Of a stretch of DNA of 64,000 nucleotides, positions 6,284 to 50,849 are shown piece by piece. The notes beneath the pieces are model-generated. The model saw only the letters and a list, made by a program, of their open reading frames with translations. It was not told where the DNA came from and made no database searches. Source of the DNA: Patescibacteria group bacterium UBA3533 (GTDB lineage Bacteria; Patescibacteriota; Minisyncoccia; Phycocordibacterales; Phycocordibacteraceae); assembly GCA_002376865.1 (NCBI GenBank), contig DFOU01000011.1, positions 16,969-80,968 on the forward strand, in the 5' to 3' direction. The number at the start of each line of letters is the position of its first letter. Position 1 is the stretch's first letter. The translations under genes were made by a program, and so were the position numbers.

Positions 6284-6561
6284 TCTAATTCTTCCTCAAG
6301 TATAAAGAGAGTAAGTTTTTTATGGCTTCCAATCTCGTATTACAAAACTCTTTCCTTTACGCTCTACTATTACCTTCTGGCCATCTCTCCAGCGAAGCGC
6401 ACGGACATCATCTATGGGGAGTGTTATAGAAATACTCCCTCCTCCGTTTTTGTTTAATTTACGTACGTTATAGTCTTCTTGTTTTTTACGTCCCATATTT
6501 TTAGTGTAGCAGAGAAATTCGGGAGTTATTCGGGAGTGTTTACAATATTTTAATTCTTCTA

Positions 6562-14363: not shown

Positions 14364-14394
14364 AAAAAGTGAAAGACCGCACAATTGTGCGGTC
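14364..14394 (-). terminator. intrinsic terminator after the 14409-14660 gene
   Basis: gaccgcaca / tgtgcggtc stem followed by tttcacttttta on the minus strand. Confidence 0.6.
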
Positions 14395-44398: not shown

Positions 44399-46731
44399 AT
44401 ATCTATTGTCTCTCCCCAATTATCTCCTATTGCTCCGTCTACTTTAAGCGGTACATCATTTGTGTCTGTTAGCGGCACAGCATTCTCCATTATTTCTTTG
44501 ATCTTTGGAGCAATACTTGGATCCTTCATTTCATATACCAATTCATCATGCACCTGAAGCACAAGATGAGCATCGTGCCCTTCCTTCTTTAGGAACTCGT
44601 CTACCTTTACCATGGCAATTTTAATGATGTCAGATTGTGTTCCTTGGATTGGAGCATTAAGTGCCATTCGCTCAGCTTGAGCTCTCACAAATGGAAGTGA
44701 TGAGTTAATTCCTTCGAAGTGCCGGCGTCTTCCGAACATGGTTTCTGTATATCCAAACTTCCGAGCATTCCCTTTTGTGTGCTCAAGGTACTCTGAGAGT
44801 TTGTGGTACTTAGAGAAATACTCATTTAGGTACTCTTGTGCTTCAGCCTGCGTTGAATCAATTGCCTTCTTTAGGGCATTGACTCCCATTCCATAGAGAA
44901 TTCCAAAGTTAATGGCCTTTGCCCTTCGACGCATTTCTTTATCTACCTGCTCTGCTGGGACACCAAATACCTCTGCTGCTACCGCCTGGTGTACGTCCTG
45001 ACCTGTTTTAAATACCTCCATAAGTTTCTCATCGCCAGATAAGAAGGCTGCAATGCGTAATTCAATCTGAGAGTAATCAAATACTCCAAGTTTGTATCCT
45101 TTAGCTGGAATAAATGCATTTCGAATTACCTTTCCTCTATCACTCTTTATAGGAATGTTTTGAAGGTTTGGATTTATTGATGCCATTCGACCTGTTGTAG
45201 TTCCAGCTTGTACAAAGTCAGCATGCAGACGATTCTCTTTGTCGAGTGTTGTGTGCAATGTATCGATATATGTTGAGAGAAGTTTCTGAAGTTCTCGATA
45301 TTCAAGAATAAGAGGAATGATTTCATGATCCTCAATCATTTTTACAAGCTCGCTCTCTCGTGTTGATCGTTGTCCTGTTGCAGTCTTCTTTTGGTTCTTT
45401 GGTTTGAGCTCTAATTTCTCATACAGAATAACTCCAAGCTGTCTTGGAGAGTTAATGTTGAACTCTTCTCCTGCAAGTTTGTAGATCTTTGCTCTGAGTG
45501 CCTCAAGTTCTTTATGATATTCCTTTGAAAGTTTCTCTAGATGCTTCACATTAAGCATTACTCCCCTTTCTTCCATTTGGTGTACTACAGGCAGCAATGG
45601 CAACTCAATCTCATCATAGAGTTTTTGAAGTTTTGGTTCTTTTTTTAATTCTGCTTTTAGAATTTTTTCTGACTCTTTAAAATCTCGCACCTTTGTATAT
45701 GCACAAATATCTTCAAGACTTGGGTTGCTCGTATCAGAGTGCAAAAGCCAGAGCATAATTGCTACTCGCTCCACTTCCCTTATATCAATCTCCTCTTCTT
45801 TTTCTTCCTCCTTCTCTTCTTCTACAATTCCAGCAAGATTTTTTACCCGGTCGCGAAGTGTTCGAAAGCCAAGCTCACCAAAAAGCTCCATTAACTTCTC
45901 TACATGATTCTCTAGGTGCCAATCTTCAAACTTTTCAATTGTAATTGGAGCGTCAGTATGAATAATCGCAAGACTTTTTGAAAATTCTGCCTGCTCTTGA
46001 TGCTCTTTTAAGAGATTTATGATGCGAGGCTTAAATCCTTTCTCTAAAAATTGCTCTTCATCTTTTTTAAGCGCCTTATATACATCCTCGAGAGAGCCAA
46101 AAGCTTTGATGAGGCTTGTTGCAGTCTTGTCCCCCACTCCTGGGATACCCGGAATGTTGTCTGACGGATCTCCTCTGAAACCTTTGTAATCTGGAATGAG
46201 GTCTGAGTGGAATTCAAATCGATCCTGCACTGCTTCTTCATCGTACAAAACAGTGTCGGTTATTCCTTTTCGCATTGTAAATACTTTTACGCGACCCTCT
46301 TCTACAAGCTGTAGCGTATCCATATCGCCAGATACGATAATTACCTCAAGATCTTTCTTTCTTTTTGTCTTCTTTACGATTGTTCCAATCACATCATCAG
46401 CCTCGTACCCTTCTGCTGAATACAAAGGAATACCAAAAGCTTTGAAAATATCTGGCATTCGCCCTAATTGGTGCCCCAGTTCATCATCCATCTTCTTTCG
46501 TGTTCCTTTGTACTCTTCAAAAGCCAGATGCCTATGTGTTGGCTTTGGAAGGTCGTTTGTGGCAACGATATAGTCAGGATTGAGATCTTTAATTGTCTTT
46601 AGGAGAATAGTTGAAAGACCATAGAGCGCTCCTGTTGGCTCTCCTTTATCTGATACAAAGTCAGGTAATGCATGATACGCACGATGAATCAGTGCGTGTG
46701 AATCAAGTACGATTAGTCGTTTATCTGCCAT
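44395..46731 (-). CDS. polA: DNA polymerase I (5'-3' exonuclease plus polymerase; short, 778 aa)
   Basis: N-terminal FEN domain (LIVLDSHALIHRAYHAL); polymerase motifs DYSQIELRIAAFLSGD, KAINFGILYGMG, LQVHDELV. Confidence 0.9.
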   Translation of the reverse strand: MADKRLIVLDSHALIHRAYHALPDFVSDKGEPTGALYGLSTILLKTIKDLNPDYIVATNDLPKPTHRHLAFEEYKGTRKKMDDELGHQLGRMPDIFKAFGIPLYSAEGYEADDVIGTIVKKTKRKKDLEVIIVSGDMDTLQLVEEGRVKVFTMRKGITDTVLYDEEAVQDRFEFHSDLIPDYKGFRGDPSDNIPGIPGVGDKTATSLIKAFGSLEDVYKALKKDEEQFLEKGFKPRIINLLKEHQEQAEFSKSLAIIHTDAPITIEKFEDWHLENHVEKLMELFGELGFRTLRDRVKNLAGIVEEEKEEEKEEEIDIREVERVAIMLWLLHSDTSNPSLEDICAYTKVRDFKESEKILKAELKKEPKLQKLYDEIELPLLPVVHQMEERGVMLNVKHLEKLSKEYHKELEALRAKIYKLAGEEFNINSPRQLGVILYEKLELKPKNQKKTATGQRSTRESELVKMIEDHEIIPLILEYRELQKLLSTYIDTLHTTLDKENRLHADFVQAGTTTGRMASINPNLQNIPIKSDRGKVIRNAFIPAKGYKLGVFDYSQIELRIAAFLSGDEKLMEVFKTGQDVHQAVAAEVFGVPAEQVDKEMRRRAKAINFGILYGMGVNALKKAIDSTQAEAQEYLNEYFSKYHKLSEYLEHTKGNARKFGYTETMFGRRRHFEGINSSLPFVRAQAERMALNAPIQGTQSDIIKIAMVKVDEFLKKEGHDAHLVLQVHDELVYEMKDPSIAPKIKEIMENAVPLTDTNDVPLKVDGAIGDNWGETIDI

Positions 46732-47155
46732 AGGTAATATTTCTAGTCTCTCCCTTAAGCTCTATTTCTATTTCTTTCCGGAAATCAGGAAGCTCCTCCT
46801 CTACCCTCTCTGGCCACTCAAGTACGATGAGGTTTTTACTGTCTTGTAGTAACTCTTTAAAACTAATTGGTTCAAGACCCTCTTCTCCTTCTAGTCTATA
46901 TGCGTCTATATGAATAAGTTTTTCAAATTTTTGATCTACAAGATCGTACTCTTTCGCCAATACAAAAGTTGGAGATGTTATGTGCTCTTCAACACCTAAA
47001 ACTTTTGCCAATTCTTTTGTGAAGGCAGTTTTTCCAGCCCCCAAGTCACCCTTTAGAGTTAGCAAGGCTGCATGCTCGTTATCCTGCTCGAGTGTCTCGT
47101 ATATTTCTTTTGCTACATTTTGTAGCTCCTCTAGTGTAGAGATATTCCATTCCAT
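46721..47155 (-). CDS. tsaE: tRNA threonylcarbamoyladenosine biosynthesis protein TsaE
   Basis: LTLKGDLGAGKTAFTKEL P-loop and HITSPTFVLAKEY motif; start at MEWNISTLEEL; 11-nt overlap with polA. Confidence 0.8.
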   Translation of the reverse strand: MEWNISTLEELQNVAKEIYETLEQDNEHAALLTLKGDLGAGKTAFTKELAKVLGVEEHITSPTFVLAKEYDLVDQKFEKLIHIDAYRLEGEEGLEPISFKELLQDSKNLIVLEWPERVEEELPDFRKEIEIELKGETRNITYGR

Positions 47156-47175
47156 TAAGGCTATTGTACCAAATA

Positions 47176-47212
47176 TGAAAAACCGCGCCTTTCCCGAAGG
47201 AAAGACGCGGTT
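47176..47212 (-). terminator. intrinsic terminator after the GC-rich lipoprotein gene
   Basis: aaccgcgcctttcc cgaa ggaaagacgcggtt, then ttttcatat on the minus strand. Confidence 0.55.
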
Positions 47213-47231
47213 GCTTGCCGTCCACTTGAAG

Positions 47232-47684
47232 TTAGCGATAGCGGCCACTGCCGTAGTAGCTGGTGCGGCACGCAGGATGGCGATCCCAGCGAGTCACACA
47301 TTCGAAGCGATCCTCATGGAGCATCACGTCGAACTCTTCGGCCACACACGGGCCACGACGACGCTGGTTACAGCGAGGAATCGTGACAGAACGCCACTGT
47401 TCTTCGCCCTCCAGGCGCACCCAGACGATGTGGGCCGCATCACTCATGTGACGAAGCCGGTCCGAATGCATCGCTCCAGGTCGCCCCAAGATGGTGCAGT
47501 GGCCGCGGACATACCCTTCAGCTTGCGTGGTGCAAACCTCGAAAGGTAGTCCGGAGCGAAACTGGATGTTCCCAGTGTCGCCGAAGTTGAAGAAGTTACG
47601 GGCATCGCCCGAACCAACTTCGGCTGTGGTTGCGCACCCTCCGAGGAGGGTGAGCGCGGCAAGTAAAGGTACAAGATGACGCAT
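47232..47684 (-). CDS. putative lipoprotein (150 aa), about 60% GC, Cys-rich
   Basis: GGAGGG then ATG; signal peptide with lipobox LLGGC; composition sharply different from its neighbours. Confidence 0.55.
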   Translation of the reverse strand: MRHLVPLLAALTLLGGCATTAEVGSGDARNFFNFGDTGNIQFRSGLPFEVCTTQAEGYVRGHCTILGRPGAMHSDRLRHMSDAAHIVWVRLEGEEQWRSVTIPRCNQRRRGPCVAEEFDVMLHEDRFECVTRWDRHPACRTSYYGSGRYR

Positions 47685-47760
47685 GTCACCCTCCATTCAT
47701 TAGTGAATACTGTGTATATTATATAACTTTACTATGTTTTTGTCAATATAGATACTTCGT

Positions 47761-47792
47761 CTACGTAATTAACTACGTAGTTAATTACGTAG
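47761..47792. promoter_or_regulatory. perfect 32-bp palindrome (three TACGTA units) in the divergent pilB / lipoprotein intergenic region
   Basis: c TACGTA ATTAAC TACGTA GTTAAT TACGTA g equals its own reverse complement; about 20 bp upstream of the pilB start. Confidence 0.6.
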
Positions 47793-47813
47793 CTAGCACA
47801 TCCCTGGTATTAT

Positions 47814-49472
47814 GTGCCTATGCCAGAGTTTAAGGATGGAGATAAAACCCTAGACGCCGCACGGCGCGCTGAAGCTGAAGATGTTTCAGAGATTTTAGCG
47901 AATCGATACAACCTTGGGTACATAAACCTAAGCACCTACCCCATAAACCCTGAGGCACTTCGTTTGAGTACTGAGGATGAAGCAAGAGCAATGCGTATTG
48001 TTCCCTTTCAAAAAGAAGGAAAGGTTGTGAGCATTGCTTTTGATAGGCCGACAAATCAAAATATTGATACATTTGCTCAGGAACTTTCTTCAAAAGGATT
48101 TTCTGTGGAGAAATTCCTTGTATCTTCATACAGTATTGAAAAAGCTCTTACTCGATATGCTGATCTTGATGCAGCATCTACAAGCACTCCTGGAGCATTT
48201 ACTATTTCAGAAAATAGATTGGCAGAAGAGCTCTCTCAATTAACTTCCCCAGCTGACATTACGAAAAAAGTAGACTCTTTGAGCAAGTTAGATAAGGCAC
48301 GACGTGCCACACGACTACTTGAGGTTCTTTTTGCAGGAGCTGCCTCAGTTGGCGCATCTGATATTCACCTTGAGCCTGGAGAGGAGGCAGCTCGCATTCG
48401 AATGCGAGTTACCGGAATGCTCCAAGACATTGCTCGTATTGATCTTCCAGCATACAGCCTGCTCCTTTCACGTATTAAATTGCTCTCTGCAATGAAGTTA
48501 AATGTGCACACACGTCCACAAGACGGACGATTTAGTATTGCTATCGGAGAGAATGACGTAGAAGTGCGAGCATCTGCCATTCCTGGAGCTTTTGGAGAAT
48601 CTATGGTGCTGCGTGTTCTTAACTCAGAGCAAAGTAAGGTATCAATAGACTCGCTTGGTATCCCAGAAAATATTCTCTCTCGTATTGAAAAGGAAATTAG
48701 AAAGCCAAATGGAATGCTTCTCACAACAGGACCTACAGGATCTGGAAAAACAACAGCACTGTATGCATTCCTTCAAAAGATTTACTCTCCCGACATTAAG
48801 ATTATTACCATCGAAGATCCTGTTGAGTATAAATTGCCAGGAATTGTACAGACACAAGTTGAAAAAGATAAGTACACCTTTGCCTCAGGACTTAAGTCAT
48901 CTCTTCGACAAGACCCTGATGTAATTATGGTTGGAGAGATTCGAGATGCAGACGTTGCGGAGACCGCAATTAGAGCATCTCTAACAGGACACTTTGTACT
49001 TTCAACGCTCCACACCAATTCTGCGGCAGGAACCTTCCCTCGCCTTGTAAATCTTGGTGTTGATCCAAAGAGTTTTGGTTCTGCAATTAATGTAGCGATG
49101 GGACAGCGTCTTGTGAGGGTATTAGATCCTGCCAAAACAAAGGATGCACCTCTTGAAGGAGCAGAGAAAGAGTTTGTAGAGAAGCACCTCTCTACCCTTC
49201 CTGAGAACGTAGAAAAGCCAGAGGTTCCTGAAATGCAGAAAGTGCCTGCGACAGATACTCCAGCTGATGCTTTTGTAAGTCGAGTTGGAATTTACGAGGC
49301 AATCTTTATGGACGATGAGCTTGCTGAGTTCCTAAAAAGTAGCCCTAGCGAGAGTGCTATACAAAAAGAAGCGCACCGACAAGGTACGCTTACAATGGCC
49401 CAAGATGGAGTGCTTAAGGCACTTAAGGGCACAACTACAATCGCAGAAGTGATGCGAGTTGTAGGTGAATAG
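47814..49472 (+). CDS. pilB: type IV pilus assembly ATPase PilB (GspE family)
   Basis: Walker A LLTTGPTGSGKTT, Walker B/Asp box VGEIRD, His box LSTLHTNSAAG. The ORF starts with GTG at 47814; first ATG is at 47820. Confidence 0.9.
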   Translation: MPMPEFKDGDKTLDAARRAEAEDVSEILANRYNLGYINLSTYPINPEALRLSTEDEARAMRIVPFQKEGKVVSIAFDRPTNQNIDTFAQELSSKGFSVEKFLVSSYSIEKALTRYADLDAASTSTPGAFTISENRLAEELSQLTSPADITKKVDSLSKLDKARRATRLLEVLFAGAASVGASDIHLEPGEEAARIRMRVTGMLQDIARIDLPAYSLLLSRIKLLSAMKLNVHTRPQDGRFSIAIGENDVEVRASAIPGAFGESMVLRVLNSEQSKVSIDSLGIPENILSRIEKEIRKPNGMLLTTGPTGSGKTTALYAFLQKIYSPDIKIITIEDPVEYKLPGIVQTQVEKDKYTFASGLKSSLRQDPDVIMVGEIRDADVAETAIRASLTGHFVLSTLHTNSAAGTFPRLVNLGVDPKSFGSAINVAMGQRLVRVLDPAKTKDAPLEGAEKEFVEKHLSTLPENVEKPEVPEMQKVPATDTPADAFVSRVGIYEAIFMDDELAEFLKSSPSESAIQKEAHRQGTLTMAQDGVLKALKGTTTIAEVMRVVGE

Positions 49473-49672: not shown

Positions 49673-50653
49673 ATGTCAAGTACCCCGGAAGAAAAGAAAG
49701 ATATACGAGTAGACCTCGACGCAACACTTCGCCCTGATAATTGGAAGGAGTATGTAGGTCAGGAGCATGCAAAAGAGAACCTCAAGATCTCTATTGAGGC
49801 TGCTAAAAACCGTGGAGAGCTTCCGGAGCACCTACTTTTCTATGGACCTCCTGGTGTTGGAAAGACAACACTAGCGCACGTTATCGCAAATGAGCTAGAC
49901 GCTCCTGTGCGAGTAACATCAGGTGTTGCAGTTGAGCGTGCAGCAGATTTAGCTGCCATCCTTACAAACTTAGAGCCAGGAGACGTGCTCTTTATTGATG
50001 AGATTCATCAACTTTCAAAGAAAGTGGAGGAGCTTCTCTACCCTGCCCTTGAAGCAGGGAGGCTCGATATTATTTTAGGGAAAGGACCATCAGCTCGTAC
50101 TGTGCAACTAGACCTTCCTCCATTTGCACTCGTTGGTGCAACGACACGAATTGCCCAGGTATCGTCCCCTCTTCGCTCTCGCTTTGGAGGAGGAGTTCAT
50201 CAACTTGATTTATATACTGACGAAGAGATTCAAACGATCATCTCTCGATCTGCAAAGCTTCTAAAGTTTGATGTGCCTGAAGATGTTCTAAAACTTATTG
50301 CACACCGTTCACGATCTACTCCAAGAACTGCAAACTTCCTCTTAAAGAGGTTTAGAGATTATGTCTCTGTACAAGACAAGAAGCCTGATCCAAAGTTGTT
50401 TGCAGATGCATGTACATTGTTTGGAATAGACGAGATGGGACTTACTAAAGACGATAGACGATATCTTAAAGTTCTAATCGAGACATTCCGAGGGGGACCT
50501 GTTGGAAGCAAGACACTCGCTACAGCTCTTGGAGAAGAAGTTACAACACTTGAAGACCTTTACGAGCCATACCTTATCCGTCTTGGGTTTGTTGAAAGAA
50601 CAACAAGAGGACGTACTGCAACAAAGAAAGCATATGAGCATTTGGATTTATAG
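49673..50653 (+). CDS. ruvB: Holliday junction DNA helicase RuvB
   Basis: LLFYGPPGVGKTTLAHVIANEL, DVLFIDEIHQLS, GATTRIAQVSSPLRSRFG. Confidence 0.95.
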   Translation: MSSTPEEKKDIRVDLDATLRPDNWKEYVGQEHAKENLKISIEAAKNRGELPEHLLFYGPPGVGKTTLAHVIANELDAPVRVTSGVAVERAADLAAILTNLEPGDVLFIDEIHQLSKKVEELLYPALEAGRLDIILGKGPSARTVQLDLPPFALVGATTRIAQVSSPLRSRFGGGVHQLDLYTDEEIQTIISRSAKLLKFDVPEDVLKLIAHRSRSTPRTANFLLKRFRDYVSVQDKKPDPKLFADACTLFGIDEMGLTKDDRRYLKVLIETFRGGPVGSKTLATALGEEVTTLEDLYEPYLIRLGFVERTTRGRTATKKAYEHLDL

Positions 50654-50654
50654 T

Positions 50655-50810
50655 ATGGATAAAAAAGAAAAAAATCTGGGAATTGCCATAGGAGTAGGAT
50701 TGAGCCTTGGAGTTGTGTTTGGTGCAGTTCTTGAAAATGTTGGACTTGGAATATCCTTAGGGCTGGCACTTGGTGCTGGAGTTGGTGTTGCTTTTAATGA
50801 AAAGGAGTGA
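50655..50810 (+). CDS. small glycine-zipper membrane peptide (51 aa)
   Basis: MDKKEKNLGIAIGVGLSLGVVFGAVLENVGLGISLGLALGAGVGVAF; start overlaps the ruvB stop. Confidence 0.3.
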   Translation: MDKKEKNLGIAIGVGLSLGVVFGAVLENVGLGISLGLALGAGVGVAFNEKE

Positions 50811-50849
50811 CTTTTCTTTTAAGTTTTAAGTACGTATAGTAGAAGCAAT

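Follow-up and report, generated by a model that had tools for sequence, protein, structure and literature searches.

A 32-bp palindrome upstream of a pilB-like gene in a Patescibacteria bacterium, a predicted operator for an AbrB-like mini-regulator

Introduction

MetJ is a small repressor that reads DNA with a beta-strand and binds to arrays of met boxes, these being tandem, short, self-complementary boxes of varying number which are occupied cooperatively by successive dimers. MraZ uses direct repeats with a period of about 10 bp. Here we describe a perfect 32-bp palindrome with three TACGTA cores, found in 64,000 nucleotides of DNA (contig DFOU01000011.1, positions 16,969 to 80,968, referred to here as the window) from a marine bacterium of the Patescibacteria, or candidate phyla radiation (CPR). 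DNA identical to the window is present in ENA, JGI and Logan assemblies. The palindrome is flanked by two divergently transcribed genes, a GC-rich lipoprotein gene on the minus strand and a pilB-like ATPase gene on the plus strand. We predict that it is an operator for a TACGTA-type member of a Patescibacteria family of SpoVT/AbrB-like proteins, referred to below as the mini-AbrB family, and put the probability of this reading at about 0.55. Gene regulation in the Patescibacteria is almost unstudied. Attachment and DNA uptake in these ultra-small, host-dependent cells are believed to depend centrally on type IV pili and ComEC.

The boxes of MetJ are 8 bp long, follow each other with no spacer and are bound by a ribbon-helix-helix fold, whereas the palindrome has a period of 12 bp and TTAA spacers. 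We know of no corepressor for the mini-AbrB family. The operators of AbrB, MazE, VapB and MraZ resemble the CPR sites in two respects. The candidate binder family matches PF04014 and consists of small, presumably oligomeric proteins, and the sites, which are repeats or palindromes, lie over the promoters of the regulators themselves, which implies autoregulation. The CPR proteins differ in being stand-alone, with no toxin partner, and in the inspected loci their sites are strict box-TTAA-box arrays with a clear box for each paralog. AbrB itself has been reported to recognise variable sequences (PMC4022651).

The operators of the YefM-YoeB and Axe-Txe systems are paired palindromes with a 6-bp TGTACA core, 12 bp apart from centre to centre and no more than 80 bp from the start codon (PMC1802561). 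A small dimeric repressor binds to those of YefM-YoeB one after the other and with cooperativity (PMC1802561). The palindrome shows the same spacing, with self-complementary 6-bp cores 12 bp apart near a start codon. It differs in its core, which is TACGTA rather than TGTACA, in the fold of its candidate binder, which is that of AbrB rather than YefM/Phd, in having three boxes with perfect overall symmetry, and in being flanked by a lipoprotein gene and pilB instead of belonging to a toxin-antitoxin operon.

Results and Discussion

Sequence and position of the palindrome

The sequence at 47761-47792 is CTACGTAATTAACTACGTAGTTAATTACGTAG, which is equal to its own reverse complement and has arms of exactly 16 nt. 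An earlier note on the same DNA had described this self-complementarity and the three TACGTA cores, and a reverse-complement comparison confirmed both. The palindrome can be parsed as CTACGTAA-TTAA-CTACGTAG-TTAA-TTACGTAG, that is three 8-bp boxes with a 12-bp period, in which the TACGTA cores are centred at 47764.5, 47776.5 and 47788.5. It is equally readable as two TTAA-centred units which are 12 bp apart and have the middle box in common.

No other spacer-free perfect palindrome of the 64-kb window is as long, the runners-up measuring 20 and 18 bp. The 18-nt half-site TACGTAATTAACTACGTA has no second match in the window with up to three mismatches (0.01 expected in shuffled sequence), and TACGTA-N6-TACGTA with up to two mismatches has no match there besides the palindrome. 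Single TACGTA hexamers are not enriched, with 17 in 64 kb compared to about 20 estimated from base composition. A chance origin of the palindrome is ruled out by its length, its uniqueness and the shuffle expectation. The two shorter palindromes are GACCGCACAATTGTGCGGTC at 14375-14394 (20 bp) and CTCGCATTCGAATGCGAG at 48391-48408 (18 bp, within the pilB coding region).

The palindrome lies in the divergent lipoprotein/pilB intergenic region, as previously stated, and its distance to the ATG of pilB at 47820 is 27 nt rather than the approximately 20 bp given before. It ends 12 nt from the extended -10 element of pilB and 14 nt from the -35 element of the lipoprotein gene. The -10-like tattat had been pointed out in the earlier note and proves to be part of an extended -10 (TGnTATtAT), which is conserved at a distance of 6 nt from the ATG. 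It is kept in the form TGnTA(t/c)(t/c/a)AT, followed by 6-7 nt and ATG, in all eight sequences compared (the window and its relatives L128, L004, L005, L131, L132, L133 and L126). The TTGTCA proposed as the -35 of pilB turned out to be the complement of the -35 of the lipoprotein promoter, a perfect TTGACA-17-TATAAT on the minus strand (47746..47718).

The mRNA of pilB is probably leaderless, because the conserved extended -10 sits 6-7 nt before the ATG and TAnnnT is common before gene starts in the window. With such a start the palindrome would span -28 to -59 of the pilB promoter and box 3 would be at the -35 position. Relative to the divergent lipoprotein promoter it would span about -50 to -81. 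TAnnnT stands 5-8 nt ahead of the ATG at 22 of the 64 crude gene starts of the window (nine of these with an extended TGn), and a Shine-Dalgarno-like sequence is seen at 12 only, which suggests that leaderless mRNAs are widespread in this bacterium.

Conservation among relatives

The upstream regions of pilB were compared, as the earlier note had proposed. In L128, in which PilB is 98% identical to that of the window, the 32-bp palindrome is identical and is extended to 38 bp. No palindrome position out of 32 has changed between the two, compared to 6 of 26 positions in two short flanks (Fisher p = 0.006), while the surrounding genes have approximately 94% nucleotide identity. This supports purifying selection on the palindrome. 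L004 (PilB 85% identical) has a perfect 32-bp variant, CTACGTAG-TTAA-TTACGTAA-TTAA-CTACGTAG. Its four differences from the window form two complementary symmetric pairs (positions 8/25 and 13/20), an arrangement with a chance of about 4e-4, which supports the view that evolution has maintained the symmetry. The distance to the -35 of the lipoprotein gene is 14 nt in the window, L128 and L004. The extended -10 of pilB is 12 nt away in the window, as against 20 nt in L004.

Five more distant relatives lack the palindrome. L005, L131 and L133 (UBA2103), in which PilB is 77-83% identical, have no palindrome and retain the lipoprotein gene and both core promoters. L126, for which the PilB sequence is only partial, has a remnant, TTAATTAC-A-CTAGCA. 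L132 (PilB 77%) lacks both the palindrome and the lipoprotein gene. The window, L128 and L004 cluster together in a PilB tree, which fits a single gain of the palindrome in the ancestor of this clade. The palindrome is best regarded as a real, selected and lineage-specific regulatory site and not as an ancestral feature of pilB.

According to the earlier note, absence from relatives with the same pilB regulation, or copies unrelated to pilB, would have spoken against an operator of pilB. The palindrome is indeed missing in the more distant relatives, whose core promoters are the same, and its sequence is found at other genes of UBA2103 (see below). Because of these two findings together we regard it as a lineage-specific regulon site, and the operator is not refuted. 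The proposal in the earlier note that a transcription-factor operator overlaps the region of the pilB promoter is favoured by the selection, the kept symmetry and a layout like that of AbrB-like sites.

The same sequence in other genomes

When GTDB genomes were scanned for TACGTARTTAAYTACGTA, at least 119 loci matched, most of them in the Patescibacteria and Bacteroidota. Several genomes have more than one copy of the motif among the matches listed, and many of the copies are arrays of two to four boxes with a 12-bp period. Two of the listed loci are in UBA2103, in which PilB is 77% identical to that of the window, both on a 406-kb contig. In one, a 32-mer identical to the L004 palindrome abuts the start codon of comEC and overlaps the stop codon of an RNase HI gene. 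In the other, CTACGTAATTAACTACGTAG, which equals positions 1-20 of the window palindrome, is found directly upstream of a gene for a 67-aa protein with a weak MazE/AbrB match.

Of the approximately 119 loci retrieved with the motif, 11 carry a gene for an AbrB-like homolog immediately adjacent to it. A twelfth AbrB-like locus (L101) has its own TACGTA-N6-TACGTA site upstream, TACGTAatacatTACGTA, which was not the reason for its retrieval. In these 12 Patescibacteria loci TACGTA-N6-TACGTA(-N6-TACGTA) occurs 3-70 nt upstream of the AbrB-like gene. Among 70 genes that follow the motif in other genomes only the GNAT/MarR and MazE-like families are enriched, pilus and competence genes are not, and no further pilB or comEC was found near the matches listed.

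The UBA2103 site at comEC (L069 5256-5291) is a 36-bp palindrome over the last codons and stop of the RNase HI gene (…ACT ACG TAG); it abuts the comEC ATG and leaves no room for a separate promoter. In seven Bacteroidota loci (L010, L017, L043, L072, L081, L091 and L109) the 18-mer class TACGTA-RTTAAY-TACGTA occurs within ATA...TAT directly beside genes for MarR-GNAT fusions, where it probably serves another family of regulators as an operator for autoregulation. Many matches to TACGTAATTAATTACGTA (L040, L058, L060, L092 and others) lie between convergent genes and have an A-run and a T-run as their borders. They resemble bidirectional intrinsic terminators that make use of the same AT-rich palindrome.

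A family of AbrB-like mini-regulators with box arrays

The mini-AbrB family, which is common in the Patescibacteria, consists of stand-alone SpoVT/AbrB-like proteins of about 60 aa and comprises at least 340 clusters at 50% identity. Three of the four homologs tested pass the cut-off of PF04014, the SpoVT/AbrB-type domain (homologs 26.3-29.5 bits compared to 24.7). For a test that did not use the motif, 80 metagenome loci were chosen by protein similarity only, and 76 and 63 unique loci were used in the counts. An exact TACGTA-N6-TACGTA is present within 130 nt upstream of the AbrB-like gene in 8 of 76 loci, compared to two matches in 185 kb elsewhere. In 39 of 63 unique loci the 80 nt upstream contain a 7-mer that is repeated at a distance of 11-13 or 23-25 bp, compared to 7% of 1260 control windows, and a perfect 5-TTAA-5 palindrome is upstream in 13 of 63 as against 1 of 1260.

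These arrays are a directly observed feature of the family. Many inspected loci contain two or three boxes with a 12-bp period, joined by TTAA or TTTAA and located just before the ATG, and the sequence of the boxes differs from locus to locus. Examples include CTCATGAG-TTAA-CTCTAGAG-TTAA-CTCATGAG, ATACTGAT-TTAA-ATCAGTAT, CTACTGAA-TTAA-TTCAGTAA and ATACCTATTTAAATAGGTAT. The spacers are TTAA or TTTAA(A) in many arrays, while other TACGTA-N6-TACGTA sites have different spacers. A box-TTAA-box layout like that of the window is seen in L106, L108, L151, L153, L162, L167, L198 and others. The palindrome shares with the arrays its 8-bp boxes, 12-bp period, TTAA joints and TTAA-centred palindromic units, and like them it has a start codon within about 80 nt. 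Boxes with a TACGTA core occur as sites next to some members of the family.

The type of box is observed to covary with the loop that follows a near-invariant arginine, R12. TACGTA or TACATA boxes occur with RKLTK[VIL]G, CTCATGAG with ...GRGRT, ATACTGAT with RKI.[KR].G.SYA, and CCCGAA with RKLNKNGGGS. Each paralog of the family thus appears to have its own box sequence. A full-text search of the literature found no paper linking AbrB-type regulators to the CPR or Patescibacteria.

The predicted operator and its binder

The sequence of the palindrome by itself does not name its binder. From the family-wide sites we infer binding by a TACGTA-type mini-AbrB protein, of which two cooperating dimers, or a tetramer, would occupy the two TTAA-centred units. 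The bound protein would lie across the -35 region of pilB and the DNA upstream of the lipoprotein promoter, and the most likely effect would be repression or modulation of pilB.

The window contains a single gene of the family. Its product matches the UBA2103 protein (tblastn 4e-16) and the family hidden Markov model (6e-30) and reaches 20.8 bits for the Pfam family MazE_antitoxin/PF04014, below the gathering cut-off of 24.7. PDB profile matches to AbrB have E of about 0.2-0.3. The promoter region of this gene has two CTCCCGAA boxes followed by TGcTACACT, 6 nt and the ATG. The boxes are kept in the orthologs L214 and L215 and occur in the opposite orientation in L216 (the orthologs are 90% and 67% identical). 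We infer that this protein is a CCCGAA-type paralog rather than a TACGTA binder, and it is disfavoured as the binder of the palindrome by the CCCGAA boxes upstream of its gene and of the orthologs. Because the member in the window appears to be of the CCCGAA type, the presumed TACGTA binder must be a paralog encoded outside the 64 kb.

Several observations weigh against the proposed operator and its binder. The only family member in the window, which represents 64 kb of a genome of about 0.6 Mb, has CCCGAA boxes and the loop RKLNKNGGGS instead of TACGTA boxes and RKLTK[VIL]G, and the AlphaFold model of its product is poor, with a predicted local distance difference test (pLDDT) score of 57. 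TACGTA palindromes, in an 18-24 bp version, also occur beside the MarR-GNAT genes of Bacteroidota, and the many TACGTAATTAATTACGTA sites between convergent genes are terminator-like. The autoregulatory arrays end about 5-6 nt from the extended -10, and because the gap of 12 nt here (20 nt in L004) exceeds this distance, occlusion of the promoter is less certain. An extended -10 promoter is also less dependent on its -35.

Alternative explanations

The palindrome could be the operator of a different DNA-binding protein encoded elsewhere in the genome, of the MarR type, the Xre type or another dimeric or tetrameric kind, its likeness to AbrB-like sites being coincidental. We consider this unlikely. 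Simple AT-rich palindromes are usable by many protein families, the paralog in the window looks specific for CCCGAA, and the seven Bacteroidota loci described above have a site of the same 18-mer class immediately beside a regulator gene. Those sites belong to another phylum and another protein family, however, and they have two boxes only, within a longer ATA...TAT palindrome, whereas three TTAA-joined boxes with a 12-bp period match the arrays of AbrB-like genes. The recurrent neighbour of the motif in the Patescibacteria is an AbrB-like gene, and UBA2103 pairs the very same sequence with such a gene. A MarR operator was rejected, there being no MarR homolog in the window. A LexA/SOS box serving pilB and ruvB was likewise rejected, as no LexA homolog was found in the window and the recurrent neighbour of the motif is AbrB-like, not lexA or recA.

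The lipoprotein gene is an exchanged, hypervariable cassette. Nucleotide identity between the window and L128 is approximately 94% on both sides and falls to 35-49% only at about 47200-47705, which is the lipoprotein coding region and its 5' untranslated region (UTR). The lipoprotein of the window is 36% identical to the L128 allele and 91% identical to the L127 allele, which lies in another genomic context beside a CYTH gene and has the same perfect promoter and no palindrome. Structural DNA, in which a cruciform or hairpin provides a hot spot for recombination or insertion of the cassette, is quite improbable as the role of the palindrome. A single strand folds into a 14-bp stem (-12 kcal/mol, z = -5), the paired changes between the window and L004 keep the arms complementary, and the neighbouring gene has been replaced between close relatives. 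However, the breakpoints are near 47200 and 47705, the latter about 50 bp to the left of the palindrome, so that the palindrome and the promoter are in the conserved part, and the lipoprotein gene occurs without the palindrome in five relatives (L005, L126, L131 and L133 at the pilB site, and L127 elsewhere). A constraint on structure only would also leave the identical sequence at unrelated UBA2103 loci without an explanation. The suggestion in the earlier note of a recombination site or insertion boundary of a foreign GC-rich gene is abandoned on these grounds; synteny of the gene is seen in six relatives, four of which have no palindrome. A mobile unit of about 48 bp or a local inversion was suspected, as the reverse complement of the left flank in the window, ACGAAGTATCTATA, resembles the right flank in L004, ACGAAGAATCACTAT. 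This was dropped, as L133 has a similar near-palindromic AT-rich sequence in forward orientation and no palindrome, and the flanks are not reliably alignable. It is very unlikely that a mobile palindromic repeat, of the REP (repetitive extragenic palindrome)/REPIN or MITE (miniature inverted-repeat transposable element) kind, landed here by chance. Its presence or absence among relatives in the same intergenic region with rearranged flanks, the CTAC...GTAG ends that bring to mind the GTAG of REPs, and the same 32-mer at another locus in UBA2103 would be consistent with such a repeat. On the other side, there is one copy in 64 kb and there are two loci in UBA2103 among the matches listed rather than many dispersed copies, these copies are placed precisely near promoters, also in front of the regulator's own gene, and the PilB tree fits a single gain and vertical descent. 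No target-site duplication is visible in the flanks, which are short, AT-rich and rearranged, with L005, L131, L132 and L133 as the relatives without the palindrome. No match was found in viral contigs, by which a phage origin was also rejected. An RNA hairpin, acting as a 5' UTR element or a terminator, is extremely unlikely, despite the strong hairpin potential of the palindrome and the related TACGTAATTAATTACGTA palindromes with A and T runs. The palindrome is upstream of both predicted divergent promoters, so neither mRNA should contain it, it has no T-tract, and no Rfam family matches near threshold. It lies between divergent starts and was not called in a terminator scan, the actual terminator being that of the lipoprotein gene at 47212-47181.

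Possible regulon and significance

If the palindrome is an operator for a TACGTA-type mini-AbrB protein, the site before comEC in UBA2103 and that before pilB suggest a DNA-uptake regulon of this regulator, with two cases only. More tentatively, the Patescibacteria family may have a modular operator code, in which the box is set by the recognition loop, and its TACGTA member may have recruited the DNA-uptake machinery of this marine lineage, with pilB in the window, L128 and L004 and comEC in UBA2103. Such a pairing of regulator and operator, and such a competence/pilus regulon, would each be the first to be predicted in the CPR. The site in front of pilB, its recurrence in front of comEC in a relative, and a candidate regulator family with a correspondence of loop to box make up a concrete hypothesis which is testable without culturing. 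The covariation of loop and box would be a compact natural dataset on specificity change in a minimal DNA-binding fold. The palindrome itself is of an ordinary kind, a transcription-factor operator, and the interest lies in the family and its target genes.

The surrounding locus

The features of the window are listed in Table 1. The genes around the palindrome are, in order, polA (-), tsaE (-), the lipoprotein gene (-), the intergenic region, the pilB-like T2SSE ATPase gene (+), ruvB, yebC and ruvC.

Table 1. Coordinates of the palindrome, its parts and the features discussed with it, in window positions
Feature	Position	Strand	Basis or remark
Perfect 32-bp palindrome, proposed three-box operator	47761..47792	.	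sequence; identical in L128, symmetric variant in L004
Box 1, CTACGTAA (hybrid box)	47761..47768	.	sequence; box-TTAA-box layout as upstream of AbrB-like genes
TTAA spacer 1, centre of unit 1	47769..47772	.	sequence
Box 2, CTACGTAG (central palindromic box)	47773..47780	.	sequence
TTAA spacer 2, centre of unit 2	47781..47784	.	sequence
Box 3, TTACGTAG, at predicted -35 position of pilB promoter	47785..47792	.	sequence; 17 nt upstream of -10 hexamer 47808-47813
Extended -10 of pilB, TGgTATTAT, 6 nt before ATG	47805..47813	+	conserved across relatives
pilB-like T2SSE ATPase gene, 550 aa	47820..49472	+	Pfam T2SSE 2e-102 and MshEN; ATG 47820 used by gene callers
-35 (TTGACA) of lipoprotein promoter, 14 nt from palindrome	47741..47746	-	12/12 consensus; same 14-nt distance in L004 and L128
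-10 (TATAAT) of lipoprotein promoter	47718..47723	-	kept in all alleles, including L127 in other genomic context
GC-rich lipoprotein gene, 150 aa from MRHLVPLL, lipobox LLGGC; hypervariable, exchanged allele	47232..47684	-	
Intrinsic terminator of lipoprotein gene; left end of exchanged segment	47181..47212	-	
Sole SpoVT/AbrB-like mini-regulator gene of window, 58 aa, stand-alone, own terminator	6320..6496	-	
Pair of CTCCCGAA boxes with 11-bp spacing, immediately before extended -10 of AbrB-like gene	6518..6536	-	

The lipoprotein gene has a GC content of 60%, compared to 42% for the genome, and its alleles range from 0.45 to 0.60, compared to 0.40-0.45 for their loci. The lipoprotein has no Pfam or NCBIfam match and only four homolog clusters among 5.8 billion proteins. 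The perfect TTGACA-17-TATAAT is present in the fully read alleles of the window, L004, L131, L133 and L127, and L126 has the same promoter with a slightly different -10 context. The L127 allele contains an in-frame TGA (1578-1580) at a Trp codon of the window and its frame is intact beyond this point, so it could be a pseudogene, a sequencing error or a case of TGA read as sense.

A segment of approximately 200 bp in the gap between ruvB and yebC (50643-50842), which contains a small glycine-zipper-like open reading frame (ORF), is missing in the otherwise about 94%-identical L128. The longest tsaE ORF (46721-47248, 175 aa) overlaps the lipoprotein gene and its terminator, while an internal start (about 47152, 144 aa) is favoured by gene callers and by Pfam coverage.

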